A DNA stretch of 64,000 nt from Botryllus schlosseri (GCA_051294905.1 CM119372.1:27530001-27594000); one strand, 5' to 3'. Counted from the first letter of the stretch, positions 10,205-37,500 are shown. The notes: generated by a model not told the origin, from the sequence alone. Numbers and translations are program-made.

Positions 10205-10861
10205 CGGAATATATCTTAGTAATTAACTTGGTAATAATAAATAACACAAAGTCAGTGGACTATCTTGAAACATGACGGGAAATGAAAGATATTGGTAACG
10301 CCGTATAATGGTTATCACTAGGGCAAGTTTTTGCAACTTTTGCAACTTTTTTTTACAGCTTCTGGAAGCTTCCTAAATACTCGTAAGATATGTAAAATGC
10401 TGTTTTAAGCTGTTTGAAGGAATCTTATAGTGCCACTTTTTCCAGCTTTCGTCCCTTTTTTTTCATGCAATTCTTCGCAACATTTTGCAACTTTTTCGGT
10501 TTTTCATGAAAGTATTTTTGATTTTGGTGAAATATACGGCCAAATTTGACTGAAATACCGTAAATCAGCACTGAAGCAACGCTCTTACGAGTATTTTGGG
10601 AGCTGAGCCAGAAAATTGACCTTTTTTTAGTCAAACTGGGAAGTTGGCTTTTTTTTAGTCAACCGCGCAAAATGTGGTCTTTTAGTGCAACTTTAGTGAA
10701 AAAATAAATGCTACTTTTTACTGCAACTTTTGTCAAAAAAAAAATGCAACTTTCCTCGGATTTAACTGCAACAAAAACTTGCTCCAGTTATCACATACAG
10801 TACGATATCTCGAAACGTTGTACAGGAAATGATCAATCCAACAGGACATGTGATGTGATAT
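10205..10861 (+). repeat. Left part of an older dispersed repeat 'D', split by two insertions; resumes at 32359-32690
   Basis: 10205-10318, 10795-10861 and 32367-32690 join to match the uninterrupted copy at ~46895-47375. Confidence 0.8.
10319..10786. mobile_element. hAT-type MITE 'A'
   Basis: TIRs TAGGGCAAGTTTTTG / CAAAAACTTGCTCCA; perfect 8-bp TSD gttatcac (10311-10318, 10787-10794). Confidence 0.88.
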
Positions 10862-11029
10862 CAGTGGTGGCTTTTGGGGTAGGCGAGGTAGGCGGTCGCC
10901 TAGGGCCCCCCTGGTTGATTTACGCGCTTTCGAGGCCCCTCCTCAGTTTACGCGCTTTTTTCAACTATTTCTCCGGTTTACGCGCTTTTTTTCAAGTATT
11001 ACCATTTTCCGAATAACCGCGGAATCCTT

Positions 11030-12130
11030 GTATCCATAAAGAATCTTGGTATTGTACCGTAAAGAGGGGTCAAACATCAATCCACATTTTTTAGTTATCA
11101 TTTTACGAATAAACACAAAAATCCATGCACCAATGTAGAATATGGTACCGTAAGCAATTGTCGATCATTAAATTCCTGCACTTGGTGCAAGAGCTCACTT
11201 CGATTTTATAATCTCTATCCATTTTGCCATTAGTTAAAGGCCCCCCCTCCTACATTTACCCGAATGTTATCATTTTGCAGATAACTGCGAAAATACATGT
11301 ACCCATGTAGAATATAATACCGTAAACAGTAGTCAACCCGCTAAAAGAGCTTACTTTGATTTTATAGGGGGGGGCCTCCTACATTTATGCAAATTTTAGT
11401 TATCATTTTGCGAATAGCGGTGAAAATACATGTAGGCATACTGCCTACATATGTAAAATATAGTACCGTAAGCAGTAGTCGATCATTAATTTCTGCAGTA
11501 GTTGCAAGAGCTCACTTTGATTTTATGATCTCTATCCATTTTGACCGTAGCTAAAGGGCCCCCCTCCTACATTTACGCGAATGTTATCATTTTGCAAATA
11601 ACTGTGAAAATACATGTACCCATGTAGAATATAATACCGTAAACAGTAGTCAATTATTAAATTTCTGCGCCCGCTAAATTGGCTTACTTTGATTTTATTA
11701 GGAGGGCCTTCCTTCTTCATTTATGCGATTTTTGGTTATCATTTTACGAATAACCGTGAAAATATATGTACCCATGTAGCATCTGGTACAGTAAACAGCA
11801 GTCGATCATTACATTTCTGCATCAGCTAAATAGCTTGCTTTGATTTTATGAGGCGCCCCCCTACATTTATGCGAATTTTCGCTATCATTTTGCGAATAAC
11901 CGTGAAAATATATTTGCCGATGTCGAATATGGTACCGTAAACAGTCTATCATTAAATTTCTGCACCCGCTAAAAGAGCTTACTTTGAATTCATGTGGGCC
12001 CCCCCTCCCACATTTATGCGAATTTTCGTAATCATTTTGCGAATAACCGTGAAAATACATGCAGGCCTACAGATGTTGTGGAATATGGTACTATAAACGG
12101 TGTTCGATAATTGAATTTCTGTGCTTGTTA
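11030..12130. repeat. Internal minisatellite of element B (~140-190-bp degenerate units)
   Basis: Recurring ATCATTTTGCGAATAACCGTGAAAATACATGTACCCATGTAGAATATGGTACCGTAAACAG...GAGCTTACTTTGATTTTAT; the same array is at ~19600-20510. Confidence 0.85.
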
Positions 12131-12886
12131 AAAGAGCTTACTTCTATTTTATGTCAATGAGGTCATATTATAACGTAATGAATTATTATTGAATATATAC
12201 TTCCTAGTGGCAGCAGTGTATATTTCAGTGCATCAAAATTTTCCAGTATATGTTTGTGTGAGATTCTACTTGCTAGCTCTTGATGCCAGCTTTCATATGG
12301 TATGTTAATTTCTAATGAAGCGAGGCCACACTGAGCCTGAATATCCAAAATATCAAAGGAAATAGTCATTTGAAAAGCCAATGAAAGCATGTAGGCTATT
12401 ATAGCCTATATATTGTTGTTTACTGAGCCATTCTCATGACTCAACATATTTGTTGTGAATTAGGCCTTTTTTGAATGGAAATCCATTCTCGGGGTTGTCA
12501 TGATTTGTTCATTTCTTGTCTGGCAGCTTCCTAAGCACTCAAAGGTTATGCATTATGGTGCTTTAAGCTGTTTGCAGGAATCTTAGATTGCAACTTTTCT
12601 TCATTTTTTCAAGCAATTTTTGCAGCTTTTCGATTTTTCATGCAACTCACTTTTTACTGGAAATATTTGGTACTATATGTAAATAGATCGCTTGATTATT
12701 TCACTGTGGTTTGAATTTGAGGTCATTTCAGATTTGACGTACATTCAGGCTAGACCGCCGTAAATTATATTACCACTGGGCCAATTTTTTCAGGCAATTG
12801 ATTTTGTCGAAGGCGATTACACTGAGTTTTGAGACAGTAGTAGTAGTATAGATCGGTCGCGAACTAACATGGGCTCTTATGGGGGC

Positions 12887-13142
12887 GGTCGCATGCGGCT
12901 GGCGAAACTCGTGGTGGCATGCGGCTTTTTAGACCCCCCCCCCTCTCGGTCGCATGCGGCTATTGCGTCTTATGGGAGCGGTGGCATGCGGCTCTTATTT
13001 CTTATGGCAGGGGTCGCAAGCGGCTGGGAAACCCGGGGTGGCAAGCGGCTCTTTTGTCTTATGGCGGGGGTGGCATGCGGCTATTTGTGTCTTGTGGTCG
13101 CACGGTAACCCTTTTCAGTATAGGGATCGGTCGCACGCGGCT
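12887..13142. repeat. Subterminal array of GGT(C/G)GCA(T/A/C)GCGGCT motifs (mirrored at ~30487-30740)
   Basis: About 8 copies of the 14-bp motif within the first ~300 bp of each arm. Confidence 0.85.
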
Positions 13143-13199
13143 TCGTTGTTGGCATGTCGTACTCTCAGGTATAGGCTGCGTTGACATGTCGTAATTTCA

Positions 13200-13990
13200 G
13201 TAAAAGGTGTGAAATAGTCAGCCGCATGGTAATGTTTTGGTAATTGGTTTGTCACAGAACCGGCGTAGACGGTGATCCGAATATCAACAATACCAACGGA
13301 CACAAATTAACACTTCAAATAGGTGTGAAATATTTGTAATATCCTATGAGTGCTCACAAGATAACACATCAGACAGACATCTCTCGTGGTTTGGTGTTAC
13401 AGAGGCAGGAATCACGCACAAGTAATATTTTGTCACAGAACCGGCGTAGACGGTGTTCCAATACCAACAATAGCCGCGTTCACTTGCTTACACTCCAAAT
13501 AGGTGTGAAATATTGGTAAAATCCCGCGATCGCTGACAAGATAATACCTAAGACATAACCATCTTTCGCGGCTTCGTGTTACAGACACATCGATCGCTCA
13601 CGCGGTGAAATTTTCGTAAGCAGTTTGTCACAGAACTTGATTTCGCTCGTAAGATTTAATAAGTGACGAATAACAGATCGCCAGTGTCGGTAACTTGAAT
13701 AGCGACAAATTGTCACTTATTTCTACTCTAACCCTAATCCTTTGTGAAGTGTACGCTTATTCAAAAAAGGTGCGAAATAATTTTAAACTCCTACGATCGC
13801 TCACAAGATAACACCTATAAGACATAACCCTCTCTCGTGACTTGTGGCTACATACATCCCAATCGCTACAATGTAATATGTTGGTAGTTTGGTACAGAAC
13901 TGGATTTCACGAGTCTGATATAATAAGAATATTACCTATTAAGTAATAAGCACCGAATAACAGAACCGGCGCAGACGGTGACTTGAATAT
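13200..13990. repeat. Degenerate ~180-260-bp tandem repeats in element C arm (mirrored at ~29640-30425)
   Basis: GTCACAGAACCGGCGTAGACGGTG at 13251 and 13432, with further partial units near 13627, 13892 and 13960; recurring AGGTGTGAAATA and CACAAGATAA. Confidence 0.8.
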
Positions 13991-16900
13991 CCAAGATTTG
14001 ATACTTTCCGCGATCGCTATATGTTTCGCGTTGACTTTGGTTGCGTGATGCGAATCATGAGAATATTCAATCAATGTGTCAATTTGTCAACTTGAAATGA
14101 AACTCACTACACAAACCAAGTTGATTCGTATTTGAATGTGTTGATCCGGTACAACTCTAAGCCTTTGAGAAATCCATTTACCGCAATCAGTTGATTCGAA
14201 CGTAACCTGAATATTGCTGACTCCAACTTCAGTCGCATCGGATTATTCGCACATTCCGCGCTGCTGTTTCACACCTATAGAATCAATACAATCTAGCTTA
14301 ATGAGAATCGGGAATCGTAAGTATGCACATACAATCGTTGTATTTATTACTGGGGAAATCAAACGCCTAACAAAAACACGCAACTTACCATTTGGCCAAC
14401 TCTAGCATTACCAAAAAATCTAGATATTGTTGATTGAAAATCCTTGAGTCCCAAATGTTATAGTACCGCATCCGAATCCATTCGCGGGATGTACTAAAGG
14501 TAAATCCAAATAATCCAGAATGAAATATTTGGACTTTGACATAATCTGAATTGAAATAGATTAACAAACATAACTGCCAACTTTCACCCAGTCACATTTC
14601 GAAATTATATGCATATTGATTTGAAACAAGTAATGAAATATTACAACTATATTCGCGATCGAACTTTTCGTTTGGCAAAGATAGTTTCAGAAATACTATC
14701 ACTATGATATCTCAACATTTTAACATCTTGCCATACACAAAAGAGTAAAATACAAAAATCTTGTCAAGTCAACCCGTTTGTAACTTACCCAACCAACTCA
14801 ACAGTATCCTTATGAAAAGTAGACAAGACTACGCAAGTAATCACCACAATCCAAAATCCATAACAAGTTCGGTTGTATTCATAGTCCGCCAACTCGTATT
14901 TTTTTATTCAACTGTAAAAGTCGTTACTATTCTGTAACCTGAAGTAATTACTACTCGGTGTGCACAGCTTGAGATTAACATATGTTTTGAGTATATGATA
15001 TTTGAATGTCTGACCAACGTAGTTAATAATTCATTTCTTACGATCAAACGCCGGTGTTACATTGAAAGTTATCATACTGCAAACATAGGGATTGACACAG
15101 TGATTTGCCATATGACGTATATTTTGTAATGCTCGACCATGACTTGATTATTAAATTATTCACGGTAATTAGACTTGGTGTTTTGGTAAAGGTTATTATG
15201 ACAGCAACAAACTTTTCACTATCATGATTATTAAAACATCAATTTGTAAAGCCAGACTTACATGTGCGAAATGTTCTTGATTCGGATATTATTCCGGATT
15301 GGTACAAAACAATCGTTGTATTGCAGACAACCGAAAATACTTTAAAAATGCAATCGTTCACAATAATTAGGACTAAAGATGAAACAACAATATCGGTATA
15401 ATTACATTCAACAACCAGTACAATTATTAAAATCCATTGTTTGCGATAACCGGTGCTAAAGATGTAATAATCCCATTATTCATACATTGAACACCCGATA
15501 CAAAATGCTTAATTATCGCAATTCGTAACGAGTAATTGAAACGACTACGTGTGGAGTTAGTATATCACAATATCGTTACTATTGAATCCAACGATTGATA
15601 CGATTTATTGGTGGAATTTGTGACAGCGAATTGAAACATCCATACCTTACAGAGTGTGAAATATCACTTTTGGTATCGAGTACCAGTAGAAGCGGGTGAA
15701 CAATACTTGATTCGTGACTCGTCGTTGTACTTGCTGAATGTAAAAAATTACAAGGTTACACTCTAAGACCTTGATCAGCACAAGAGCAATTTGGAATATC
15801 ATTACTGACTGCAGCCTATTCTACTAGACAAAACTCACGACAATAATAGAATCAAAATATGTGCTACACTGAAATCTACAAAATGTGTTTGTATTGTTGT
15901 TAGTGATCATACATTATCATTTGAATCTTCTAAAGTAATTGTAATCATAAAACCAAACTACTGAAAGTCATTACCAACACAAAAACAGTTTGCATGATAT
16001 TCACCAAACACATCCTTACTCAGTATGCATAAATTATTTGTAGAGTGCATACCATCAAAGAAATCTGGAACACAACCAACACCGAAAATGATAAATGCGT
16101 TTCGCGTTACTATTGACACAAGTTCATTTCTATCAAGCGAAATAAACGCCATCACAAAACTCAGAGCATGCAAAGGTCTTGATTGATGTGAATTTCGATT
16201 TGGGTCTTATGATACCAGCAAGCATTTTAGAAATATTATGATTCGTTAAACCAAAGTCGTACGCCCGATTAATAGTTGATTGGAAACTTGATCACGTACC
16301 TCAATCATTACAGAAGGGTATAACACCATTGTCCGACAATCTTTTGCAAAAAGGATCGAAACCAAGTCACTCAAAGTCGTTGCCGTCACATAAACAATTT
16401 GTACGACGTCTGATAAATGTATCCTATAGTTAGGTGTACTAGAAATATTTGTAAAACACACTCCGGTAAAGAAATCGACGAAAAGATATCCTACACCTAG
16501 ATCTGGTAAAACTATTTTGCACTTTTTGTTCGTTGGTATGGTATCCATTTTAATTTTTCCATTTCCTCTCGTCAAAGTAGATGTAATCATAGTCACGAAA
16601 GAACTTACTAGGACGTGCTTGAATTCTAGACATAGTTCTGATTTACCCGACACAAGACCCAAGGGCAACCCTAGTTTCAACCGAGCACACATATCCAAAA
16701 TATCACACACTTCGCTATTCCTAAAGCACAAACACCCGATACAAAATATTACTTGTTGTGTTTTTGCGGTCTCATCTTCACAATATCACACACAATACGA
16801 ACGATGGGTATGTGAAACATGGCGTAGACTTGAATCACACCAACCTGGAAGATTATTTACTCACTTTTTACATAACGGAAATTGATCAACATCACGTCAT

Positions 16901-18224
16901 CGGTGTGTATCGGTTTTTCTAGATACAAACTATATGCTAGTGTAGCGGAAAATAATTTAGTGTAAGAAAAACAATTTTCACTCTCTTGACTCATGAAAAC
17001 AACAGACGAGTCTTCCTTCAATATTTTTTTTGTGTCAACTAGGTGCTTTGTATGATACGATCGATATCCCCGCGACTTTTTCAGATCGCAATATGAAAGA
17101 TATTTACATCACACAAAATATTACTCCACTCGATATCCCCCATACTATACTAAACCGCGGAATGATTGGCCAGACTCTACAAAGTGTTTTGATATCGTTT
17201 TTACACGAAAGGTTACGTATGTAAATATTCAAATAATCGCAAACGCAACTATAGTACTTACAGAAATATCATATAGTTGTTGTAACAAAGTTGTATGAAT
17301 ATACTATTGAATTGCATACTAAAGTTTTGTACCTTCAAGAACCTCTTCAAAGTTGTATGTGTACAATGTTTATCGTGAGTCCTACACATTGATGATACCC
17401 GTCCGAGTTTGACTTTTAGAAAATATTATGTCGACATACTGATGTCTTTCAAAAACCAAATCATGGTCACTACTTGGGAGGTCTATCAATGTCATGGCAG
17501 TAATCTATAGTTACTTCCACCAAAGAGTATGTATTCGACTTACGTTCCACAAATCTAACGCACAAAACAATTTACTTTACTTACGAGAAGCGCCGAGCCT
17601 ACCATCAAAACAACTAGAAGGTGGAACTATATTAAAAACGTCGCTAGCCTTTGTGCACCAGCTGTAAATCACACAAGTAACAAGTTTCAAGATTCTGGTT
17701 ATTGAAAAAGCGTTAGAGTGTTTCTCCTGCGCCAAGTCGTTATGTTGACGAAAGCGTATATTGTAATATCATGATCGATTTGCATTCGTTGGTCACAAAC
17801 TGTCACTACTCTAAATAATTCTTTTTCACTCAAACACAAACGCATACTTGTCACCATTCGTTTTCATCAAGTACGAGTTCAAGAAACTTACTACGACATG
17901 AATTTTTATTTTTATGTTGTGTAAATAGGTAATAATTAATTCAAGTAACACTATATCAACATCATCGAGTTGTGCTAATAGATTTACATGTGGTCTTGTG
18001 GTTTTCATCGGGACATACAGCACGAACTAACTGTAGACTCCTCTCTGTTGTACAGCTACTCGGTAATCGAAATGCATTAACATGTAAACAACGATCTTGT
18101 TTCGTCACACCAAAAATATGTTCACTGTCGCGATACTCCGCACAAGACGTGCATAGCCTTTTCACACTCGTAATAGTATACCAACGTCAAGCGATAACGT
18201 TTAACAAGACCAACGACACTGAAC

Positions 18225-18745
18225 CCACGACGTTTACCTATGTGAAATTCCCACTTTCACTTGCCAGTCCATCGTTTACCTGACTAAACATATTATTTTC
18301 CTTTGGAGATCTGATGTTTACCCAGAGTAAGAAACCTTTTTCACTTGGAAATCTATTTTTTCCTTGGCTAACAAACCTTTTTTCACTTGTAAATATGTTT
18401 TTTCCTTGGCTAACAAACCTTTTTTCACTTGGAAATCTATTTTTTCTCTGGTTAACAAACCTTTTTCCCGGGTAACAAACCTTTTTCCCTGAGCAACAAG
18501 CCATTTTCACTTGGTGGTCCGTCGTTTACCTGAGTAAAAATATCATTTTCCTTTGGGGATCTGGCGTTTACCCGGTGTAACAATACATTTTCGCTTGGAA
18601 AAATACTTTTACCTAGAGTAACTAATCATTTTCTCCTGGGTAACAATCCCTTTTCGTCTGGAAACTATCATTTAACTGAGTACCAATACCGTTTTCACTT
18701 GGAAATACATTTTTCCCTGGGTAACAATACCATTTTCGTTTTGAA
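18225..18745. repeat. 21/42-bp minisatellite in element C arm (mirrored at ~24885-25405)
   Basis: Repeated TAACAAACCTTTTTTCACTTGGAAATCTATTTTTT; produces the repetitive FPSEKRFVSQGKN ORF. Confidence 0.85.
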
Positions 18746-19420
18746 AACTGACAACCACACCGGCCAATTTGATATTTTTGTATATTGTTACAACGAACAG
18801 TGACGGAAATATACACTGACTACCGGTTTCAGAGTACACCCCATCGGTCGTATCACGTCAATATCATCGGTTAACCACATACAATATACTCTTGTACACC
18901 GAAATGCACGCTTTGGAAAATTGGACAATAGGCTGCGATAGTTCTGTGATGTCCGGGTTCGTGCTTTAGATTTTCCAGAGTCAAAATGTCTGAATAAAAC
19001 ACCTCCTTGACGATGGTTGGTATGTGGATAACGGTGTTCGGAAAACGGTTGGATTTATGTCGCCCATCGCGATAACAATTCCTGGTCGAGTTTTCCTCCG
19101 GCATGTTTGCTATATTGTGTCTTTATTGGTCAATGTATGTCTCGACATTCAGTTTGAAATCGGAAATGATAAAGTATGTAACCGGATCCGGATATCAACT
19201 CTGAATCGATAAACCAATGAACGATATTCAAAGTAAACATGTCACACCCTGTGTTTCCACGAAAAAATACCATCCAGACATACGTCGCGCTTGTTTGCCC
19301 ACATCAGTATACGCGCAAATGGAGGTGTGTGACATTGCATGCAATGTGTTGGTATACAAACATCGATCCACAGACATTATCATAGCCGGTAGTTTTGATG
19401 TAGATCGAATGTCACCCGAT

Positions 19421-22400
19421 CAGTGGTGGCTTTTGGGGTAGGCGAGGTAGGCGGTCGCCTAGGGCCCCCCCTGGTTGATTTACGCGCTTTCGAGGGCCCC
19501 CCCTCCTCGGTTTACGCGCTTTTTCCAAATATTTCTCCGGTTTATGCGCTTTTTTTCAAGTATTACCATTTTCTGAATAACCGCGGAATCCTTGTATCCA
19601 TAAAGAATATGGTATTGTACCGTAAAGACAGGTCAATCATTAAATCTCATTTTTTAGTAATCATTTTACGAATAACCACAAAAATCCATGCGCCAATTTA
19701 GAATATGGTACCGTAAGCAGTAGTCGATCATTAAATTTCTGCGCTAGTTGCAAGAGCTCACTTTGATTTGATGATCTCTATCTATTTTTCCATTAGCTAA
19801 AGGGCCCCCCCCTCCTACATTTACGCAAATGTTATCATTTTGCAAATAACTGAAAATACATGTACGGTACCCATGTAGAATGTAATACCGCACACAGAAG
19901 TCAATCATTAAATTACTGCACCTGCTAAAAGCTTACTTTGATTTTATGAGGGGGGGGCCCTTCTTCATTTACGCGATTTTTGGTTATCATTTTACGAATA
20001 ACCGTAAAAATACATGTACCCATGTAGCATATGGTACCGTAAACAATAGTCGATCATTGAATTTCTGCATCCGCTTAAAGAGCTTACTTCGATTTTATGA
20101 GCCCCCCCCCTAAATTTATGCAAATTTTAGTTATCATTCTGCGAAGAACCGTGAAAATGTATGTACCGATGTGGAATATGGTACCGTAAACCGTCGATCA
20201 TTAAATTTCTGCATCTGCTAAAAGAGCTTACTTTGATTTTATGAGCCCCCCCCCCTACATTTATGCGAATTTTAGTTGTCATTTTACGAGTAACCGTGAA
20301 AATATATGTACCCATGTAGAATATGGTACAGTAAACAGAGGTCGATCATTAAATTTCTGCACCTGCTAATAGAGCTTACTTTGATTTTATGAGCCCCCCC
20401 TCCATTTATGCCAATTTTAGTTTATCATTTTGCGAATAACCGTGAAAATACATGTAGGCCTACCCATGTAGAATATTGTCTTGTAAACGGTGTTCGATAA
20501 TTGAATTTCTGTGCTTGTTAAAAGAGCCTACTTCGATTTTATGTTAATGAGGTCATATCAGTGCATCAAAATTTTCCAGTATAAGTTTGTGAGATTCTAC
20601 TTGCTAGCTCTTGATGCCAGCTTTCATATGATACCGTATGTTAATTGATAATGAGCCGTGTCCGCACTGAGCCTGAATATCCAAAATATCAAAGGAAATA
20701 GTCATTTGAAAGCCAATGAAAGCATAGGCTATTATAGCCTATATATTGTTGTTTACTGAGCCATTCTCTTGTTGTGAATTGGGCCTTTTCTGAATGGAAA
20801 TCCATTCTCAGGGTTGTCATGATGGTAAATTTGTTCATTTCTTGTCTGCGGATTAGCAGCGTATTTTCAAAGCTTTACCATGCTCAATGTGCACCCGGTA
20901 CAGTCAGTCAGAAAGTGTTTATGGTGTTGTCAGAAAGTGTTTTTTTTATCACAGGTGGATGTCTTTTAATTGGTGGTGTACTATAGATAGATATGCAATA
21001 CATCTTGCATGCAGGACAGTTTCTAGCGGCCTGATGCCTGATATTTCATGCCTCAAAAATCTATGTCAATACTTGAAAGGTTTGAATGGCTATCATTGAG
21101 AAAGGTGTACGAAAGGCTACATATATTCAATTTGTTGTGAGGTTGATAATTTAATGTGATGTCACAGAAAAAGACCAAAATGAGACCAAACAATAAGCAA
21201 TGGAATCAATTTCAGCAGGGCAGAAGAAAGAATTAAATGATCACAAGTCAAGTTTTTGCAACTTTTTTTACAGCTTGTGGCAGCTTCCTAAATACTCGGA
21301 AGTTATGTAGTATGGTGTTTTAAGCTGTTTCGAGGAATCTTATATTGCGACTTTTCTTCATTTTTTCAAGCAACTTTTTGCAGCTTTTCGATTTTTCATG
21401 AAACTCACTTTTTACTGGAAATATTTGGTACTTAATGTAAATAGATCGCTTGATTATCATCACTGTCGTTTAAATTTGAGGTCATTTCTCAGTTGACATA
21501 CATTCAGGCTAGACCGCCGTAAATTATATTAGCCTACTACTGGGTCAATTTTTTCAGGCTATTGATTTTGTTGAAGGCGCCAACACTGAGGTTTGCGACA
21601 GTGCCTTGGATACGCATCGATTCGAGTATCTCATACCTTAATAATGTCAAGAAACTTATCCATAAATGTACTTTTTTAGTGTAACTTTAGTGAAAAATAA
21701 ATGAAAAATAAATGCAACTTTTTACTTCAACTTTTATGAAAAATATGTGCAACTTTCCACGGATTTGACTGCTACCAAAATTTGCCCTAAGATCCGGTGT
21801 TGCATAAGACAATTTTGACCATTACACTCTTGCAATGGGCTACCAGTTCAATATAAATGTGACTCGGTAAACAGCATATTTAGTAAGGCGCACTCGTCAG
21901 TTGACAACCGTACTTTTCATTAGCTACGATGAGTTTGGTATCACTCAGTTATATGTGATGTTGTAATTGGTAGCATCAGTATCTCCTAATTACTGCAGTC
22001 AAGTATCTGTCACAATGCCGCGAGCACATGCTAAATGTAAGTCAGGATCTCGGAAAAGGAAGTGGTTCAGATTTGGAAAGAAAGTGACAATGCAAATTTT
22101 GAACTGCGACACAAATATTTATTTAACCATCTGTTTCAGCTCAGGAATGTTCTGCACAAATTGAGGATGATGCTGTTTTTCCACCAACTATATTGCCTTG
22201 TAGACTTGAATGATGTAACAGTGCTTTCAAATACGTATATTGTATTTGATTGTAGTGGTCTTTTGTCTATGCTAGTTGTGGCGTTTTAGGTTTAATCCAA
22301 CCAGGCAAGTTCTTACAGACAAAAAAATTTTTTCTATAACTTACAATTTTTTCATTAGTGCGTGTTGTTTCGTGTGTGTAACTGTTTATTTACAAATTGC

Positions 22401-23232
22401 GCTGCTACTATAGTACCGTATGTCCGTATACTTCAAGGTTTGTTGTTGTTGTCATTGTTACAATGCGAATATCATGGTTTGTGATTTTGATTGTTGCGTC
22501 ATACTTTGCCGTTTTGATTTTGCTTTTAAATCTATTTAAATGCCTTAGGTGTGCAGTTAACTCTTGAAGAGAGGCACCCAAAAATTATCCGAGTTCAATA
22601 AATATTATATTACAATGGATGTTGTATTGAAAGCTATATTCTTACAGATCATGGAACTAGCTCTTCACAGGTGATACCAGTACTGATGTGTTCCTGTGGT
22701 ATTACTGGTGTTGTACCACATTGCCGCACATTTTGCTTTTATGCCTTATCATGCAACAAAATCTTCTTTGTAGCAAAAAGATATGCCCAATCCAGCACCT
22801 GACTGAAACCTTGACGTGGTGTGCTGGCTTATTACTAATGTCAGCCGACAGCTTTCTGGATTTATGTGGTATATTTGGCGTGCAGTTGCCTTATTATACT
22901 ATCATGTCATGCTACATCCCATAATTCTTCTACATAGGTGGGTCTGGGCACGCGCTGTAGTTCACTTGAGTCACTTGTTTTCGAATATGCCAAGTCGTTT
23001 ATTGTACTGTGGCATGACATTATAATTATTTTATATGCTGAAAGTTTCAACATGATGTACAGACAAAGCACTACCGGAACAGTGTATACGTGGTGTAGAA
23101 CAATAAAAGTATCGTTAAGCGCTAGTGAGGGGGGTCTGGGGGCGTAGCCCCCCAGAAGTTGCGATAATATAGATAAGGAGGGCCCCCCCGGAAGTTTCGC
23201 CTAGGGCCCCCCCAATCGTAAGGCCACCACTG
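19421..23232 (+). mobile_element. Intact copy of hAT-type family B (B'), inserted in the left arm of element C
   Basis: Same ends as B; perfect 8-bp TSD cacccgat (19413-19420, 23233-23240); the right arm shows the empty site near 24205-24220. Confidence 0.93.
21247..21790. mobile_element. A-family-related MITE remnant embedded in family B
   Basis: Similar to 10319-10786 (AGTTTTTGCAACTTTTT...GCAACTTTCCACGGATTTGACTGC...TTTGCCCTA). The equivalent segment in B is the one split by element C. Confidence 0.7.
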
Positions 23233-23280
23233 CACCCGATAACAATACCAATAAGCCACATTGCAATGACTCTGAGTCCG

Positions 23281-24168
23281 CGCTATTACATCGATATTTC
23301 GACACCGTTCGCTGATTTACTCGATGGTGTTATCGTGTTGTTACATTGCAAGATAGTCATGACCCTATCTCCGGACAGATCACCCAGACCAATTGGATAC
23401 ATCGGTCGATATCCGTCGTGTTGTCGACACCGAAGTTTTCTGCTGAGACTGCAGCGATTGACCAATGTGAACTATCGAAGTACGGTGCTCGAAATGATTG
23501 CGATCAGTCTTTCAGTCACGATGCATGGATGTCGCTACTCCCACATAACGACTCCAGATAAATATCGTGCAAATCTCGGACTGATACTGTGATCCAATAA
23601 GGTGTGTCTCTGTGAAGACTGCAATCGTACACCACAATAGAACACTACCTCGTGATTTCACACGCAATCAAAAAACACATCATCGTAAGGGTCCATTTCG
23701 CCCGGTGCCATTTCGAAACGGTCATCGCCACAAGAGATCGGTAACATTTTGAAACCATCATCACCACAAGGCTATCGACGTCGTTTCAGTTGGTCATGTC
23801 AATCCGTTTTACAAAGTACCGTTTTTCGAGTCCCTGCACCATAGTGTTACGACACAGGCAAGATGCATCGGTGGAAATAATAAAACACAGAAGGCACACT
23901 TTGGTGTTATTTGACATAGGTTTTACACCTGAAGAACCTTACATTCGAGCGATGCATTGGAACGACGCTTGTATTATTGACGTCGAAGGAACAGAAATGT
24001 ATCGATTTATCGGTTTCGTACATATCCAGAAAAAATCTGGTTATATGATTGTACACGGTGAATGTCTGTGAACGCTCTATTGGAAAATTCTGTGCAGTTC
24101 ACTTTCACCGTCGTGCGAATAACCCATGTTATGGTTCCATGTTTGTGTGTCTGTATGTCATGCTCAGA
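23281..24168. other. Unique central spacer (loop) of palindromic element C, 888 bp
   Basis: Inverted identity ends at ...TCTGAGTCCG (23280) and resumes at CGGACTCAGA (24169). Confidence 0.85.
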
Positions 24169-27100
24169 CGGACTCAGAGTCATTGCAATGTGGCTTATTG
24201 GTATTGTTATCGGGTGACATTCGATCTACATCAAAACTACCGGCTATGATAATGTCTGTGGATCGATGTTTGTATACCCACACATTGCATGCAATGTCAC
24301 ACACCTCCATTTGCGCGTATACTGATGTGGGCAAACAAGCGCGACGTATGTCTGGATGGTATTTTTTCGTGGAAACACAGGGTGAGACATGTTTACTTTG
24401 AATATCGTTCATTGGTTTATCGATTCAGAGTTGATATCCGGATCCGGTTACATACTTTATCATTTCCGATTTCAAACTGAATGTCGAGACATACATTGAC
24501 CAATAAAGACACAATATAGCAAACATGCCGGAGGAAAACTCGACCAGGAATTGTTATCGCGATGGGCGACATAAATCCAACCGTTTTCCGAACACCGTTA
24601 TCCACATACCAACCATCGTCAAGGAGGTGTTTTATTCAGACATTTTGACTCTGGAAAATCTAAAGCACGAACCCGGACATCACAGAACTATCGCAGCCTA
24701 TTGTCCAATTTTCCAAAGCGTGCATTTCGGTGTACAAGAGTATATTGTATGTGGTTAACCGATGATATTGACGTGATACGACCGATGGGGTGTACTCTGA
24801 AACCGGTAGTCAGTGTATATTTCCGTCACTGTTCGTTGTAACAATATACAAAAATATCAAATTGACCGGTGTGGTTGTCAGTTTTCAAAACGAAAATGGT
24901 ATTGTTACCCAGGGAAAAATGTATTTCCAAGTGAAAACGGTATTGGTACTCAGGTAAATGATAGTTTCCAGACGAAAAGGGATTGTTACCCAGGAGAAAA
25001 TGATTAGTTACTCTAGGTAAAAGTATTTTTCCAAGCGAAAATGTATTGTTACACCGGGTAAACGCCAGATCCCCAAAGGAAAATGATATTTTTACTCAGG
25101 TAAACGACGGACCACCAAGTGAAAATGGCTTGTTGCTCAGGGAAAAAGGTTTGTTACCCGGGAAAAAGGTTTGTTAACCAGAGAAAAAATAGATTTCCAA
25201 GTGAAAAAAGGTTTGTTAGCCAAGGAAAAAACATATTTACAAGTGAAAAAAGGTTTGTTAGCCAAGGAAAAAATAGATTTCCAAGTGAAAAAGGTTTCTT
25301 ACTCTGGGTAAACATCAGATCTCCAAAGGAAAATAATATGTTTAGTCAGGTAAACGATGGACTGGCAAGTGAAAGTGGGAATTTCACATAGGTAAACGTC
25401 GTGGGTTCAGTGTCGTTGGTCTTGTTAAACGTTATCGCTTGACGTTGGTATACTATTACGAGTGTGAAAAGGCTATGCACGTCTTGTGCGGAGTATCGCG
25501 ACAGTGAACATATTTTTGGTGTGACGAAACAAGATCGTTGTTTACATGTTAATGCATTTCGATTACCGAGTAGCTGTACAACAGAGAGGAGTCTACAGTT
25601 AGTTCGTGCTGTATGTCCCGATGAAAACCACAAGACCACATGTAAATCTATTAGCACAACTCGATGATGTTGATATAGTGTTACTTGAATTAATTATTAC
25701 CTATTTACACAACATAAAAATAAAAATTCATGTCGTAGTAAGTTTCTTGAACTCGTACTTGATAAAAACGAATGGTGACAAGTATGCGTTTGTGTTTGAG
25801 TGAAAAAGAATTATTTAGAGTAGTGACAGTTTGTGACCAACGAATGCAAATCGATCATGATATTACAATATACGCTTTCGTCAACATAACGACTTGGCGC
25901 AGGAGAAACACTTTAACGCTTTTTCAATAACCAGAATCTTGAAACTTGTTACTTGTGTGATTTACAGCTGGTGCACAAAGGCTAGCGACGTTTTTAATAT
26001 AGTTCCACCTTCTAGTTGTTTTGATGGTAGGCTCGGCGCTTCTCGTAAGTAAAGTAAATTGTTTTGTGCGTTAGATTTGTGGAACGTAAGTCGAATACAT
26101 ACTCTTTGGTGGAAGTAACTATAGATTACTGCCATGACATTGATAGACCTCCCAAGTAGTGACCATGATTTGGTTTTTGAAAGACATCAGTATGTCGACA
26201 TAATATTTTCTAAAAGTCAAACTCGGACGGGTATCATCAATGTGTAGGACTCACGATAAACATTGTACACATACAACTTTGAAGAGGTTCTTGAAGGTAC
26301 AAAACTTTAGTATGCAATTCAATAGTATATTCATACAACTTTGTTACAACAACTATATGATATTTCTGTAAGTACTATAGTTGCGTTTGCGATTATTTGA
26401 ATATTTACATACGTAACCTTTCGTGTAAAAACGATATCAAAACACTTTGTAGAGTCTGGCCAATCATTCCGCGGTTTAGTATAGTATGGGGGATATCGAG
26501 TGGAGTAATATTTTGTGTGATGTAAATATCTTTCATATTGCGATCTGAAAAAGTCGCGGGGATATCGATCGTATCATACAAAGCACCTAGTTGACACAAA
26601 AAAAATATTGAAGGAAGACTCGTCTGTTGTTTTCATGAGTCAAGAGAGTGAAAATTGTTTTTCTTACACTAAATTATTTTCCGCTACACTAGCATATAGT
26701 TTGTATCTAGAAAAACCGATACACACCGATGACGTGATGTTGATCAATTTCCGTTATGTAAAAAGTGAGTAAATAATCTTCCAGGTTGGTGTGATTCAAG
26801 TCTACGCCATGTTTCACATACCCATCGTTCGTATTGTGTGTGATATTGTGAAGATGAGACCGCAAAAACACAACAAGTAATATTTTGTATCGGGTGTTTG
26901 TGCTTTAGGAATAGCGAAGTGTGTGATATTTTGGATATGTGTGCTCGGTTGAAACTAGGGTTGCCCTTGGGTCTTGTGTCGGGTAAATCAGAACTATGTC
27001 TAGAATTCAAGCACGTCCTAGTAAGTTCTTTCGTGACTATGATTACATCTACTTTGACGAGAGGAAATGGAAAAATTAAAATGGATACCATACCAACGAA

Positions 27101-30100
27101 CAAAAAGTGCAAAATAGTTTTACCAGATCTAGGTGTAGGATATCTTTTCGTCGATTTCTTTACCGGAGTGTGTTTTACAAATATTTCTAGTACACCTAAC
27201 TATAGGATACATTTATCAGACGTCGTACAAATTGTTTATGTGACGGCAACGACTTTGAGTGACTTGGTTTCGATCCTTTTTGCAAAAGATTGTCGGACAA
27301 TGGTGTTATACCCTTCTGTAATGATTGAGGTACGTGATCAAGTTTCCAATCAACTATTAATCGGGCGTACGACTTTGGTTTAACGAATCATAATATTTCT
27401 AAAATGCTTGCTGGTATCATAAGACCCAAATCGAAATTCACATCAATCAAGACCTTTGCATGCTCTGAGTTTTGTGATGGCGTTTATTTCGCTTGATAGA
27501 AATGAACTTGTGTCAATAGTAACGCGAAACGCATTTATCATTTTCGGTGTTGGTTGTGTTCCAGATTTCTTTGATGGTATGCACTCTACAAATAATTTAT
27601 GCATACTGAGTAAGGATGTGTTTGGTGAATATCATGCAAACTGTTTTTGTGTTGGTAATGACTTTCAGTAGTTTGGTTTTATGATTACAATTACTTTAGA
27701 AGATTCAAATGATAATGTATGATCACTAACAACAATACAAACACATTTTGTAGATTTCAGTGTAGCACATATTTTGATTCTATTATTGTCGTGAGTTTTG
27801 TCTAGTAGAATAGGCTGCAGTCAGTAATGATATTCCAAATTGCTCTTGTGCTGATCAAGGTCTTAGAGTGTAACCTTGTAATTTTTTACATTCAGCAAGT
27901 ACAACGACGAGTCACGAATCAAGTATTGTTCACCCGCTTCTACTGGTACTCGATACCAAAAGTGATATTTCACACTCTGTAAGGTATGGATGTTTCAATT
28001 CGCTGTCACAAATTCCACCAATAAATCGTATCAATCGTTGGATTCAATAGTAACGATATTGTGATATACTAACTCCACACGTAGTCGTTTCAATTACTCG
28101 TTACGAATTGCGATAATAAAGCATTTTGTATCGGGTGTTCAATGTATGAATAATGGGATTATTACATCTTTAGCACCGGTTATCGCAAACAATGGATGTT
28201 AATAATTGTACTGGTTGTTGAATGTAATTATACCGATATTGTTGTTTCATCTTTAGTCCTAATTATTGTGAACGATTGCATTTTTAAAGTATTTTCGGTT
28301 GTCTGCAATACAACGATTGTTTTGTACCAATCCGGAATAATATCCGAATCAAGAACATTTCGCACATGTAAGTCTGGCTTTACAAATTGATGTTTTAATA
28401 ATCATGATAGTGAAAAGTTTGTTGCTGTCATAATAACCTTTACCAAAACACCAAGTCTAATTACCGTGAATAATTTAATAATCAAGTCATGGTCGAGCAT
28501 TAAAAAATATACGTCATATGGCAAATCACTGTGTCAATCCCTATGTTTGCAGTATGATAACTTTCAATGTAACACCGGCGTTTGATCGTAAGAAATGAAT
28601 TATTAACTACGTTGGTCAGACATTCAAATATCATATACTCAAAACATATGTTAATCTCAAGCTGTGCACACCGAGTAGTAATTACTTCAGGTTACAGAAT
28701 AGTAACGACTTTTACAGTTGAATAAAAAAATACGAGTTGGCGGACTATGAATACAACCGAACTTGTTATGGATTTTGGATTGTGGTGATTACTTGCGTAG
28801 TCTTGTCTACTTTTCATAAGGATACTGTTGAGTTGGTTGGGTAAGTTACAAACGGGTTGACTTGACAAGATTTTTGTATTTTACTCTTTTGTGTATGGCA
28901 AGATGTTAAAATGTTGAGATATCATAGTGATAGTATTTCTGAAACTATCTTTGCCAAGCGAAAAGTTCGATCGCGAATATAGTTGTAATATTTCATTACT
29001 TGTTTCAAATCAATATGCATATAATTTCGAAATGTGACTGGGTGAAAGTTGGCAGTTATGTTTGTTAATCTATTTCAATTCAGATTATGTCAAAGTCCAA
29101 ATATTTCATTCTGGATTATTTGGATTTACCTTTAGTACATCCCGCGAATGGATTCGGATGCGGTACTATAACATTTGGGACTCAAGGATTTTCAATCAAC
29201 AATATCTAGATTTTTTGGTAATGCTAGAGTTGGCCAAATGGTAAGTTGCGTGTTTTTGTTAGGCGTTTGATTTCCCCAGTAATAAATACAACGATTGTAT
29301 GTGCATACTTACGATTCCCGATTCTCATTAAGCTAGATTGTATTGATTCTATAGGTGTGAAACAGCAGCGCGGAATGTGCGAATAATCCGATGCGACTGA
29401 AGTTGGAGTCAGCAATATTCAGGTTACGTTCGAATCAACTGATTGCGGTAAATGGATTTCTCAAAGGCTTAGAGTTGTACCGGATCAACACATTCAAATA
29501 CGAATCAACTTGGTTTGTGTAGTGAGTTTCATTTCAAGTTGACAAATTGACACATTGATTGAATATTCTCATGATTCGCATCACGCAACCAAAGTCAACG
29601 CGAAACATATAGCGATCGCGGAAAGTATCAAATCTTGGATATTCAAGTCACCGTCTGCGCCGGTTCTGTTATTCGGTGCTTATTACTTAATAGGTAATAT
29701 TCTTATTATATCAGACTCGTGAAATCCAGTTCTGTACCAAACTACCAACATATTACATTGTAGCGATTGGGATGTATGTAGCCACAAGTCACGAGAGAGG
29801 GTTATGTCTTATAGGTGTTATCTTGTGAGCGATCGTAGGAGTTTAAAATTATTTCGCACCTTTTTTGAATAAGCGTACACTTCACAAAGGATTAGGGTTA
29901 GAGTAGAAATAAGTGACAATTTGTCGCTATTCAAGTTACCGACACTGGCGATCTGTTATTCGTCACTTATTAAATCTTACGAGCGAAATCAAGTTCTGTG
30001 ACAAACTGCTTACGAAAATTTCACCGCGTGAGCGATCGATGTGTCTGTAACACGAAGCCGCGAAAGATGGTTATGTCTTAGGTATTATCTTGTCAGCGAT

Positions 30101-33100
30101 CGCGGGATTTTACCAATATTTCACACCTATTTGGAGTGTTAGCAAGTGAACGCGGCTATTGTTGGTATTGGAACACCGTCTACGCCGGTTCTGTGACAAA
30201 ATATTACTTGTGCGTGATTCCTGCCTCTGTAACACCAAACCACGAGAGATGTCTGTCTGATGTGTTATCTTGTGAGCACTCATAGGATATTACAAATATT
30301 TCACACCTATTTGAAGTGTTAATTTGTGTCCGTTGGTATTGTTGATATTCGGATCACCGTCTACGCCGGTTCTGTGACAAACCAATTACCAAAACATTAC
30401 CATGCGGCTGACTATTTCACACCTTTTACTGAAATTACGACATGTCAACGCAGCCTATACCTGAGAGTACGACATGCCAACAACGAAGCCGCGTGCGACC
30501 GATCCCTATACTGAAAAGGGTTACCGTGCGACCACAAGACACAAATAGCCGCATGCCACCCCCGCCATAAGACAAAAGAGTCGCTTGCCACCCCGGGTTT
30601 CCCAGCCGCTTGCGACCCCCGCCATAAGAAATAAGAGCCGCATGCCACCGCACCCATAAGACGCAATAGCCGCATGCGACCGAGAGGGGGGGGTCTAAAA
30701 AGCCGCATGCCACCACGAGTTTCGCCAGCCGCATGCGACCGCGCCCATAAGAGCCCATGTTAGTTCGCGACCGATCTATACTACTACTGACAGTGCCTTG
30801 GATACGAATCGATTCGAGTATCTCATACCTTAATAATTTCAAGGAACTTATCCATAAATGTACCTTTTTAGTGTAACTTTAGTGAAAAATAAATGCAACT
30901 TTCCACGGATTTGACTGCAACCAAGATTTGCCCTAAGATCAGGTGTTGCATAAGACAATTTTGACCATTACATTCTTCAAATGGGCTACCATTTCAATAT
31001 GAATATGACCCTGTAAACAGCATATTAAGTAAGGCGCACTCGTCAGTTGACAACGTACACTTCTACGATGAGTTTGGTCACTCATTTAAAAGTTCCGTTG
31101 TAATTTGTTGCATCAGTAGCTCCTAATTACCGTACTCTAGTCAAGTAGCTGCTACAATGCCGCGATTACATGCTAAATGTAAGTCAGAATCTCAGAAAAG
31201 GAAGTGGTTGAAAGAAATGACAATGCAAATTTTGAACTGCTACACAAATATTTTAACAATTAATGTCAGCTCAGGAATGTTCTGCACAAATTGAGGATGA
31301 TGCTGTTTTCCCGAACAACTATAATGCCTTATGTCTTGAATGATGTAACAGTGCTTTCAAATACGTATATGGTATTTGATTGTAGTGGTTTTTTGTCTAT
31401 GCTATTTGTGGCTTTTTAGGTTTAATCCAACCAGGCAAGTTATTACAGACAAAAAGATTTTCTCCATATCTTACAAATTTCTCATTAGTGAGTGGTATTT
31501 CGTGTGTGTAACAGTTTATTTACAAATTGCGCTGCTACTATAGTACCGTATGTCCGTATACTTCAAAGTTTGTTGTTGTTGCCATTGTTACAATGCGAAT
31601 GTCATGGTTTGTGATTTTGATTGTTGCATCATACTTTGCCTTTTTGGTTTTGCTTTTAAATCTGTTTAAATCCCTTTGGTGTGCCGTTAACTCTTGAAAA
31701 GTGGCACCCGAAAATTCTTCTAGTGCAGGAAATATTATATTACAATGGATGTTGTATTGAAAGCTATATTCTTACGGATCGTGCAACTAGCTCTTCACAG
31801 GTTATACCAGTGCTGATGTGTTCCTGTGGTATTACTGGTGTTGTACCATGTTGCCGCACATTTTGCTCTATGCCTAATCATGCAACAAAATCTTCTTGGT
31901 AGAAAAAAGATAGGCCCAATCCAGCACCTGGCTGAAACCTTGACGCGGTGTGCTGGCTTATTACTAAAGTCAGCCGACAGCTTTCTGGATTTATTTTTAT
32001 ATGGTCTATTTGGCGTGCAGTTGCCTTGGTATACTATCGTGTCATGCTACATCCCATAATTCTTCTAAATTGGTGGGTCTCGACACGCACTATAGTTCAC
32101 TTGAGTCACTTGTAAAAAATTGACAAGTAGTACTTTGGCATGTCATTATAATTATTTAATATGGTTACAGTTTTATCATGATGTACAGACAATGTAGTAC
32201 CGGAACAGTGCATACGAGGCGTACAACAATAAAAGTATCGTTCAGCGTTAGTAAGGGGGGTCTGGGGGGCGTAGCCCCCCAGAAGTTGCGACAATGTAGA
32301 TAAGTGGGCCCCCCCCAGAAGTTTCGCCTAGGGCCCCCTAATCGTAAGGCCACCACTGTGTGATATAATATGTGTATGGTGATATACGAATATATATATT
32401 TGTGTGATACAGCGTAATTCATTCATTTACTCATTCAAATCGGAGATATCCAATTCGACATTTTTACTGTGGTGCGAGTGGCTCAATAAAGTTACAAGTG
32501 CGGGATACAGAATCAAAAGTACGTTTGTCCGTGTGATCTTGACTAGATATGTACGAAACCGGTGCTTTGTGTGGTACGTCAGTCAAAGTTGTTCACTTCC
32601 GTTGGACGCTGGTCCGCCGAAAGGTAAATATATGCAGTGAATCCTACAAGTAACCGTCTGGAGTCAGATTACACAAGTTTAACATCGTAAAGGCATGCAG
32701 CCTGCACTATATTGTTGACCCCGACTTTCGATCTCAACCGATCGAGCAATGAACAGGCAGAGGGGCGATGAAGACAAGATCCGCCTAAAACATTCGGCGA
32801 GAAAGACCATCCAGCCGCACAAGGAACATTTACATTCTACATACTTGTTTCGACGAGGGCTAGGCTACCCCTCGAATTGGGAAATCAGTCACACACCCAT
32901 AACTTTATTAATAATGAAGCAATGTTTCTGAAATTCGGACACAAGGTGCTTTGTTAGACATCCTAACTTTGGTGAAAATTGGTTGAAAAATGGTCAATGA
33001 TTTTAAACTTTCATCAGATTTTATGATTTTTCAAACTAATTATTTGTGAAATTTTTTGAGGGTGCTCATTATAGATTCTGGTTACCCCAAATTTTTGGAT

Positions 33101-34568: not shown

Positions 34569-37500
34569 TTATAAATAGCGGTTGCACGATAACACAAATT
34601 CAACGACATACGGGACTATACGAGAATCAGTGAGCAAATCATCAATACAGAAATTCACTTTTAATTGAACACATTTATCCATAAGAAATGAACGATGAAA
34701 GTCATATTTAGGGCAACTAATTAAGAAATGATCCACAGTTTCGGGGTAGCGGCAGTAACAACACGCAGGAGAGTCTACCATTCCAAGTTTGAACAAATGG
34801 CCATTTAATCGACAATGACCTGATTGCAATCGAAGGATTATACTATCATAAAGGCGATTACCATAACCAGGGGAAGGATGTAGAACAGAACTGTTGAAGG
34901 ACTTGTAACGTAGGCCGTTTTCGGAGCTCTGGTATTCTTGATCCCACAATGCCATGCTGTGGCGACGGATTATGTGCCGGGCTTCTTGTTCGGAGAGCGT
35001 CGGCATATCTTCGGACATTGACGGAGTGGTGGAGACATTCTTTGCCAATCTGTCAGCTTCTTCATTGCCGTGAATGCCCACATGGCCGGGAATCCAAAGG
35101 AATGATACGTTGACGTCGAGTTCCCTCAATCGAGACAGGGAGAATAAAATATCACAAACCAGCTTATGGCGAGGATACATGTTGAAGTTACGAATGCAAG
35201 CCAGGGCACTCGAACAATCTGACATGATCAGATATTCGGTTGACGAGTTGCGATTTCGTGTAATCCAACTCAGCGCTAGGTCGATCGTTATCATTTCAGT
35301 CGAGAAGACAGAGTGCTCGGCTGAACAAGCCTGGGCAACTGAAACGTCAAGTGAAGGGATGCAAAACGCCGCTCCCCCTCCAACAAGCGATTTAGATCCG
35401 TCCGTGTATATTAGCGTGTGTGCATCGTAGTTATCGGCAACGTGACTTAAACAAGTCTGGTTATAGGCCTCAATAACGCCACGTAAAGCATTCTCCGAGA
35501 GGAGAGATAAATCAACACGTGGTTGAGGTAACAACCAAGGAGGAGACGAGGGAAGCCGGTACCTGTCCAATATGAAGCCATTGAATAGCGGTGATTTAGT
35601 ATAGGAGTTGAATGTCTGAAAGCTTGGATTTGTAAGACAGTAAATGTCATGCCAGGAATCTTCAATAATTTGGCTGATGAACGAGTTTCTCGGGTCCTGG
35701 TTCATCAGGTGGCACCGGTAATTCATTGAAATAAACTTGTGCCGCAGATGCAAAGGCATTTCCCGACATTCGGCTTGAATCACGCAAATCGGGGTGCTGC
35801 GCATGGCATTTGTACAGATCCGTAAAGCTTTACTCTGGATAACCTGGATCTCCTTCAGATGCGTGACCGGTGCAAAAAAGTACGCCGGCATTCCGTACTC
35901 CACGATGGAGCGAACGAGGGAACGGTAGACACACAGGAGACACTTCTTACTGGCTCCCCAACTTGTCCCAGTTAAGAGCTCTCAACAAATTCAATCTTTT
36001 ACTACATTTAGAGGAAATGTATTCGATATGTGCTTTGTAGGATAGCGTCTTATCAAAAACGACGCCGAGATATTTGAATGTTTCCACGAACGGTATATTC
36101 GAACCATCCAGTTGGAGAGCAAGAAGAGGTATTTTTCTTTTTCGTGTAAATAACATTGCGACGGTTTTGGATTTGGACAAGAGCATACCCCACTTGTCAC
36201 ACCATTCTTGTATGGAGTCCATAGAGCGCTGCATGGACAGAAGTAGGTCTGGGATGGAGAGACCGCAATCCCAAAGTAAGAGGTCGTCGGCGAATAGGGC
36301 ATGGGAGGTGTTTACCAACAGGGGAAGATCGGCCATCATGATTGCAAAGAGCAGAGGGCTGATGACACTGCCCTGTGGCAGGCCATTTTTTTTTAAAAAT
36401 GAACGTTGGAGAGAGAACCACCAACTCGAACTTGAAAAGATCGGTGTGACAGAAAATTATTTATCCAATTCAACGTTTGGCTCTGTTAGTTTGAACAAAA
36501 GACCGTTGCGCCATACCATATCATACGCGGATTGGATGTCCAAAAAGACTGCAATCACGGAATACCGATTGTTGACCGCTTTGTACACGGTATCATGAAG
36601 TTGCATGATGTTATCCATGGTGCTACGCCCATGACGAAATCCGGACTGAGCGGCGTTGAGAAGGGAGTTAGATTCCAAGTGCCATCTCAAGCGCCTCGTT
36701 ACCATCACCTCCATTACTTTACATAGGTGACTAGTCGGCGAAATGGGACGATAGGATTTAGCCGCAGCTGGGTCTTTCTCGCCTTTCAATATGGGGACAA
36801 CAACAGAGTGTTTCCAGGTGTCGGGAAGAAGGCCATTACTCCAAGAAGAGTTGATCAAACGGAGGATATATGTTAGAGACTTGTCAGACAAGTGCTTTAA
36901 CATTGGGTATAAGCAGGCCGTGTTATTTTTGGCATATGCCAAAACTGCCAAAAATAGCTTATTTTTGGCATTTTTCAATTTTTATTTTTGGCAGTTTTGG
37001 CATCGACCTCTAAATAGATATTTTCAGACTCGAATTAGTCATAAAAACGCTTTATTTTGGTCAGTTTATCAATAGAGACCAAAAAATGTGCAGAATCCAC
37101 TTATAATCAGTACCAACAAACAATAAGAAGAGAAAAAACCTAATGATTACATAGGTTAATAATATCAAACAAAACCACAAAATGTGCAGTATCCATTCGG
37201 CATCGGTGCCAATAAGCAAAAAGAATGAGAAGCCCAACAAACACGCTCAACACCTGATTGTTACAGCTCTTGAATAGACTTAAATTGTTTGCACTGTAAC
37301 AGTGCTTCCAAACTCAGGTCAGCAAAGTTTCTCCTGAATTAATTTTTCGCCCAACGAATCTGGGAAACATCGCTTCAACAGTAGCCGTTGAGGGAAAGAA
37401 TGTTGCCAGTCCTCCACAAAAGGTTTTCAGAGCTTCAAAATTTCGGAGGGCAGAACCGCCTTCCAAGCATCATGAAAAGAGATCACTGCGCTAGTGCCAT

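Follow-up and report, generated by a model that had tools for sequence, protein, structure and literature searches.

In the current study, we characterized a palindromic element in a 64,000-nucleotide stretch of Botryllus schlosseri DNA (GCA_051294905.1 CM119372.1:27530001-27594000; hereafter the window). In its native form the element is 14,130 bp long and consists of two ~6.62-kb arms, an 888-bp loop and a 6-bp target duplication. Comparisons across the genome make it probable that the palindrome is a heritable snap-back satellite, which shares its ends with one autonomous Polinton family (family E) and is copied and inserted by proteins of that helper. The arrangement is more general than one locus, as it is repeated for at least three helper families.

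Results

Self-BLAST of the window returned a single inverted pair, in which the main part of the left arm (12839..19420, + strand, 6,582 bp) matches 30788-24209 over 6,582 columns at 99.74% identity. The right arm (24169..30788, -) runs for 6,620 bp without interruption, and the left arm is split by a later insertion, B' (19421..23232), that is confined to this arm, has the ends CAGTGGTGGC...GCCACCACTG and is flanked by an 8-bp duplication (cacccgat, 19413-19420 and 23233-23240). From this end pattern and duplication, we take B' to be hAT-like; it makes up most of the 4.8-kb spacer between the arms. Since the left arm resumes for 40 bp past B' (23241..23280, +; an exact 47-bp run at 23234-23280 pairs with 24169-24215), the unique loop spans 888 bp (23281..24168), and without B' the element measures 14,130 bp, 94% of which is inverted repeat. 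In a global alignment the arms differ at 17 columns (15 substitutions and one 2-bp indel), with six of the 17 lying in the first 210 bp. The termini, AGTAGTAGT...ACTACTACT, display the (AGT)n...(ACT)n terminal motif of Polintons and are flanked on either side by gacagt (12833..12838 and 30789..30794, both +). The palindrome lies within element B, a hAT-like host element (10862..32358) with an 8-bp duplication of its own (TGTGATAT, 10854-10861 and 32359-32366). B' is an 80-88% paralogue of B, and it holds gacagt once, at 21597-21602, which represents the empty target site. The first-pass annotation had described a ~14-kb hairpin that is almost all inverted repeat, with ~6.62-kb arms differing at ~15-20 positions, these termini, an exact 6-bp duplication, an 888-bp loop and an empty site in a paralogue, all of which our alignments bear out.

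Autonomous Polintons of the same genome were reached through the ATPase profile PF04665. The polymerase of the element found in this way gave 248 candidate places, of which 131 were scored and form the basis of all polymerase counts given here. Many of these matches lie in frames of ~1,300 codons, and open reading frames (ORFs) resembling pPolB were present in seven families, which we labelled A-G and from which 11 elements were sampled. A genome search with PF03175 had returned no match, a false negative given that pPolB was later found via the PF04665 element, and a search with the integrase profile PF00665 was uninformative because long terminal repeat (LTR) retroelements swamped the result. 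Elements of family E measure 16.0-16.5 kb, account for about 55 E-like rows among the scored places, and encode pPolB (PF03175), an integrase with rve and chromo domains, and a P-loop ATPase. A 423-aa protein is likely to be the major capsid protein, as judged from its position and weak matches, and a cysteine protease is likewise likely from its position, H/D/Q/C motif pattern and weak matches. An ORF of 156-159 aa was also observed near the right end in families A and B; by eye it resembles a ubiquitin-conjugating enzyme.

Family E was the only one of the seven families whose termini match those of the palindromes, and it supplies the autonomous partner with matching ends that the first-pass annotation had postulated. 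We compared 18 E ends (the motif was seen in 15 of 20 extra stretches) with 30 palindrome halves, the other six families serving as controls. The best terminal BLAST matches of all 30 halves were to family E; exact terminal matches extended up to 103 nt with E and no more than 11 nt with the other six families, and in one palindrome copy the likeness to an E end extends over 848 bp, at 95% identity. Ends of both kinds are strings of short cassettes drawn from a common pool, with most alleles shared. The slot-1 allele of 21 of the 30 palindromes, and the slot-3 allele of 17, was seen among the 18 E ends, and distinct cassette combinations were carried by 28 of 30 palindromes and by every E end. 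Eight four-gamete violations among the terminal cassettes indicate recombination. In the window, the terminal region (12839..13240, +; mirror 30389-30788) comprises AGT repeats followed by short GC-rich cassettes common to family E, and it likely serves as a putative replication origin and integrase site.

The core Polinton genes are absent from the palindrome, the best Pfam match among its 13 ORFs having an E-value of only 0.17. Neither pPolB nor an integrase was found in it by tblastn with genome-native Polinton proteins or with an integrase profile; ATPase, protease and major or minor capsid genes were not found beyond decayed traces of a protease end; Pfam and PHROGs assign no family to its ORFs, and Rfam gave 0 matches. 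The traces lie subterminally at 14237..14920 (-; matches at 14237-14382 and 14875-14920, mirrored at 29247-29392 and 28709-28754), are 68-85% identical to family E by blastn, and agree with E's protease end in position and orientation. A clearer protease relic, 76-90% identical at the amino acid level over two pieces of ~20 residues, occurs in a copy designated C8. In one further copy, helper-derived subterminal DNA takes another form, as the 215-aa left-end gene of E is found in both arms, at 90% amino acid identity, in place of the relic. The earlier statement that no Polinton genes are recognisable holds for the core genes; it does not hold for these protease traces or for the 91-aa loop gene described below, which has an accessory-gene homologue. 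The longest ORF of the palindrome (179 codons, 16246..16785, -; mirror 26844-27383, +) is longer than in 200 shuffles. Since no homologue was found and it is intact in none of 10 divergent matches, we do not treat it as a gene. Degenerate 42-bp tandem repeats in the arms (18296..18737; mirror 24883-25333) are kept in all subfamilies.

In the 495.5-Mb genome holding the window, first-look searches with the terminus returned 1,788 candidates; the loop gave 753, an arm piece 1,523 and the loop protein 1,205. From these numbers we estimate a family of roughly 700-1,200 elements. Copies for study were taken from top-ranked lists, 10 by terminus pair and 20 by loop match. All 20 of the latter are palindromic, with arms of 5.7-6.9 kb at 97.4-99.99% identity. 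Subfamilies are mutually 70-85% alike and mosaic, and no homology between them is detectable mid-arm. Further copies with different target duplications, as the first-pass annotation anticipated, were readily found: among 29 copies tested, with one rearranged locus left out, the 26 that had both ends in the DNA examined all showed a perfect 6-bp duplication. Length is narrowly distributed at 13,683 ± 583 bp (n = 23 of 27, the four copies with large one-arm insertions being left out), which is 0.85 of helper length. In three of 26 E-type palindromes, the outermost 30 nt of the two ends show 4-6 differences. Two individual loci deserve mention. At C3:23919230-23958878, the rearranged locus, two palindrome copies accompany a 6.7-kb inverted duplication of flanking DNA, which suggests a palindrome-driven rearrangement. 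At C5:728137-744095, a family E Polinton with its own 6-bp duplication (accgta) sits within one arm of an E-type palindrome.

Among five sister copies (10 pairs), 32-49 sites per pair differ in both arms together; arm-to-arm differences number 1-11 per sister copy, all of them private, with none shared among copies. Differences between sisters that are symmetric, together with the lack of any shared arm-to-arm difference, indicate that the arms were equalised repeatedly along each lineage. Captured genes, namely the E left-end gene mentioned above and a loop-gene homologue in a palindrome of the D type, are present in both arms, and elements acquired after insertion are confined to one. This pattern fits an equalisation that would take place during the mobile phase; chromosomal conversion is less likely as the equalising process.

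Families D and G, which had been intended as satellite-free controls, both proved to have palindromes. Terminus searches gave 548 candidates for D and 325 for G. Eight of 10 D-terminus pairs are long palindromes without core genes, 13.5-16.4 kb long where uninterrupted, the remainder being one 5-kb short form and one that is not a pair. Three D-type palindromes have loops of only ~40 bp, and three carry D left-end genes in both arms. The 10 G-terminus pairs were divided equally between palindromes and full Polintons. A hairpin built on a helper-type end was therefore seen in 20/20 E-type, 8/10 D-type and 5/10 G-type pairs. Separately, four of the five full G Polintons showed no inverted match of at least 100 bp at 93% between their ends, their terminal repeats differing in cassettes. 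Termini of family B were observed in pairs separated by 11.6-16 kb, the DNA between them holding no scored polymerase match (C3:33643268-33658151, C1:3169799-3184685 and others), and F termini are likewise paired (C14:8465215-8478468, C6:3666466-3680344, C9:3860658-3873629 and others). It is possible that these pairs, judged from the scored polymerase places, represent further palindrome families.

Purifying selection acts on a 91-aa gene in the loop (23796..24071, +), with dN/dS about 0.25. Start and stop codons are kept across subfamilies at ~60% amino acid identity, and 147 of the 150 top-scored matches, a set biased by ranking, have no internal stop. Pairwise dN/dS among 38 gap-free copies was 0.20-0.27 in four identity bins, and differences between the window and C8 loop ORFs fall 24/15/42 by codon position. 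When all 658 ORFs were considered, of which 211 were testable, the first 12 rows all belonged to the loop ORF, and the strongest arm ORF reached p = 0.011, uncorrected. Each of the five full family G Polintons, as well as the G reference, has a 95-aa homologue (~30% identity, profile E-value near 1e-9) immediately after its protease gene. No homologue was found in three whole E elements, in 20 E right-end stretches or in families A-D and F. Among palindromes, a homologue is carried by one of eight of the D type and two of five of the G type. The two post-protease ORFs of families A-C were considered as counterparts and rejected, with no homology and probabilities of 0.5% and 2.5%. Database searches recovered six close homologues, all unnamed and on short contigs; no relatives were found in viral or metagenome contigs, and Atlas matches were all <0.9. 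The protein is predicted to be all-beta (pLDDT 80; a first model had pLDDT 36). No fold match was obtained at E < 0.001 or Z of at least 5, and a likeness to the small heat-shock beta-sandwich (Z 4.9, rmsd 3.2, 60 aligned residues) was not taken as indicating function. Two other divergent homologues were observed, a G-like one inside an insertion in the C6 copy (L021:7635-7937) and one, 53% identical, adjoining a family B Polinton (L079:4447-4725).

Several other features were noted in the window. B and B' each hold a 145-152-bp tandem array (11089-12153 and 19652-20543). A broken hAT-like transposase with a Spin-doc zinc finger and DUF4371 lies at 6639-8116 (-), and a fragmented non-LTR retrotransposon, with a gag-like ORF, endonuclease, reverse-transcriptase pieces and RNase H, at 34572-41190 (-). 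Two related fold-back elements of ~680 bp, ~83% self-complementary, occupy 57342-58020 and 60766-61442.

Discussion

The interpretation offered in the first-pass annotation, a non-autonomous satellite that uses a helper Polinton, is supported by our data, in that both further copies and a helper exist in the genome. That reading was right as far as it went, but it did not extend to the loop gene and the selection on it, to the relic of the protease, to the shuffling of end cassettes or to the parallel palindromes of other families. We propose that the helper's pPolB, acting by protein priming, would start at the AGT terminus of the palindrome. Once past the loop, the nascent strand may fold back and be completed on its own first arm. 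Both arms would thereby be copies of one, and the product would be almost fully double-stranded after a single priming event. The helper's integrase would then insert this product with a 6-bp duplication, after which the arms would diverge as LTRs do and gain one-sided insertions such as B'. We propose mobilisation by helper proteins in trans on the grounds of the shared ends and the length of the duplication. Replication alongside the helper could lead to swapping of terminal cassettes and of pieces of either helper end. The role of the end motif is discussed in PMC8097293, and the excision-replication-integration model of Polintons is summarised in bioRxiv 10.64898/2026.07.28.741278. In a helper that has no such gene, the loop protein likely favors the satellite's own propagation. 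From length alone, the chances are about even that the narrow size of the palindromes is set by packaging into the helper's capsid. Their excess in copy number and their hypervariable ends are only suggestive of interference with the helper.

Several observations weigh against this interpretation or limit its reach. All of the evidence comes from integrated copies; forms that are episomal, packaged or replicating were not observed. Equal arms could arise from chromosomal conversion or from repair in a folded strand, and a length limit could reflect replication or host selection instead of a capsid. Profiles of 27 Polinton protein clusters match only two places in 14 palindrome halves, and most of the arm interior has no helper-gene match that would account for its origin. 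The protease relic of C8 also matches family F (77% vs. 89% for E), and the capsid and protease labels of E are themselves drawn from position, motif pattern and weak matches. Selection on the loop ORF is moderate when transitions are weighted (pN/pS 0.39-0.48), the pairs compared are not independent, and the C8-like copies in that test were chosen by protein similarity; for comparison, the available part of PMC8097293 gives about 0.001 for fish Maverick core genes. Finally, 40-150 candidates were scored per search, making our counts estimates and not verified copy numbers, and since copies were taken from top-ranked matches, young and intact ones are over-represented.

Other explanations must also account for the palindromes. 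One is a foldback-type non-autonomous transposon that borrows only the Polinton integrase for cut-and-paste movement, with chromosomal gene conversion keeping the arms alike and neither helper polymerase nor capsid involved. In favor of this account, gene conversion between long inverted repeats is a known process, the interior of the arms does not code for protein and an extrachromosomal form was not observed. However, insertions into one arm, among them B' and a whole Polinton, have been retained, the identity between arms falls to 97.4% after insertion, and sister copies inherit no arm-to-arm difference; moreover, palindrome length tracks helper length in three families, and the long, recent exchanges with helper ends fit co-replication. 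We regard such an origin as unlikely. It is also quite unlikely that the palindrome is a cooperative segment of a multipartite Polinton, supplying the 91-aa accessory protein that E lacks and being co-transmitted for helping E. The selection on the loop gene, its place as a normal gene of autonomous family G and the failure to find it in the E elements and right-end stretches searched are in keeping with that idea. On the other hand, satellites are likely several-fold commoner than E, most D- and G-type palindromes do without the gene, families A-D and F have no detectable homologue, and 270 bp of gene leaves 13 kb of palindrome unaccounted for.

A host role seems very unlikely. Hairpin copies of Polinton ends might be retained as sources of small RNAs against Polintons, as long inverted repeats are generally known to be able to yield double-stranded RNA, and the loop and arm are covered by contigs from runs guessed to be RNA. 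Yet it is a guess that those runs are RNA, the arms have only helper ends in common and not helper genes, and the copies, one of which lies within a retroelement ORF, are fresh insertions at scattered sites whose duplications differ. One raw RNA run, from a different organism, gave 0 reads. An assembly or library artefact, in the form of a fold-back chimera, is extremely improbable. This copy is covered only by short contigs, with no spanning long read, but against it, 27 sites have perfect 6-bp duplications, an empty site is seen in a paralogue, the arms differ at 17 columns, insertions into one arm bring duplications of their own, and this architecture recurs on many chromosomes.

Cut-and-paste elements of the Foldback, Mutator and hAT types have an 8-11-bp duplication and transposase-type ends. 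We rejected this identity for the palindrome, which has a 6-bp duplication and Polinton ends, the 8-bp pattern belonging to B and B'. Non-autonomous Polintons are said to have been reported by Kapitonov and Jurka in 2006 and in Repbase. With non-autonomous DNA transposons in general, including foldback elements and such Polintons, the palindromes share a reliance on cis-acting ends, mobilisation in trans and greater numbers than the autonomous partner. Such transposons usually shrink by internal deletion; the palindromes instead stay close to the helper in length, have 6-kb arms that are re-equalised, and have parallel counterparts in at least three helper families. Snap-back or copy-back defective interfering genomes, generally known from RNA viruses and parvoviruses, likewise duplicate one helper end as an inverted hairpin, and the D- and G-type copies with ~40-bp loops and intact helper end genes in both arms resemble them further; those genomes, however, do not persist for long and tend to be far smaller than that of the helper. 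Not itself an autonomous Polinton, the palindrome behaves as a defective satellite genome would, and its closest analogue is SYREC, a symmetric recombinant of adenovirus 12 and cell DNA that the original paper of 1981 reportedly presented as palindromic, genome-length and encapsidated. The available portion of PMC2396429 describes it as helper-dependent. Both SYREC and the palindromes are symmetric, place viral termini around non-viral filler and would depend on a helper with protein-primed replication. SYREC, however, originated in cultured cells and lacks a partner integrase, whereas the palindromes are integrated in the germline, amplified and differentiated into subfamilies, exchange ends with their helper and contain a gene under selection.

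Compared with autonomous Polintons, the palindromes share the 5'-(AGT)2//(ACT)2-3' ends and perfect 6-bp duplication (PMC8097293, available text) and a size near the constrained ~17 kb (PMC8097293 and PMC6431247, available text), and they contain the relic protease end and one accessory-gene homologue. They differ in lacking pPolB, integrase, ATPase and capsid genes, in being 94% inverted repeat as opposed to a few hundred bp, and in likely being far more numerous than the 8-287 copies per genome given for vertebrates in these two papers. No description of genome-sized palindromic Polinton derivatives was found in a literature search to which Repbase and most subscription papers were external, so that a Repbase entry may exist. 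The available parts of PMC8097293, PMC6431247 and PMC11414722 do not mention palindromic elements, non-autonomous Polintons are apparently absent in anole (PMC3014272), and only 52-nt terminal palindromes are described in bioRxiv 10.64898/2026.07.28.741278. The survey in PMC8097293, according to its available text, started from integrase and polymerase matches. Surveys of this design are blind to such palindromes, which are therefore possibly widespread and missed.

These findings bear on both the genome and the biology of Polintons. At 700-1,200 copies of 13.7 kb, long and nearly perfect inverted repeats would make up ~2-3% of the B. schlosseri genome, with consequences for genome stability, and arm divergence provides an LTR-like insertion clock for Polinton activity. 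Extrachromosomal replication and virions of animal Polintons are still argued from indirect evidence, and particles have not been observed so far, according to the available text of PMC8097293. A gene-poor, high-copy passenger with a helper-like length and re-copied arms opens direct tests of Polinton replication and packaging. Tentatively, and with somewhat less than even confidence, we suggest that the palindromes form a class of endogenous defective-interfering satellites of animal Polintoviruses. Such satellites would be genome-sized palindromes that arose for at least three, and perhaps five, Polinton families of one host, are borne in helper capsids, and trade genes and ends with their helpers and with each other. 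They would also encode a selected accessory protein acquired from another Polinton family and drive an arms race, of which the combinatorial shuffling of their origin cassettes is the record. If this is true, packaging into animal Polinton virions would be legible, as in a fossil, from the conserved length of DNA that is non-coding.

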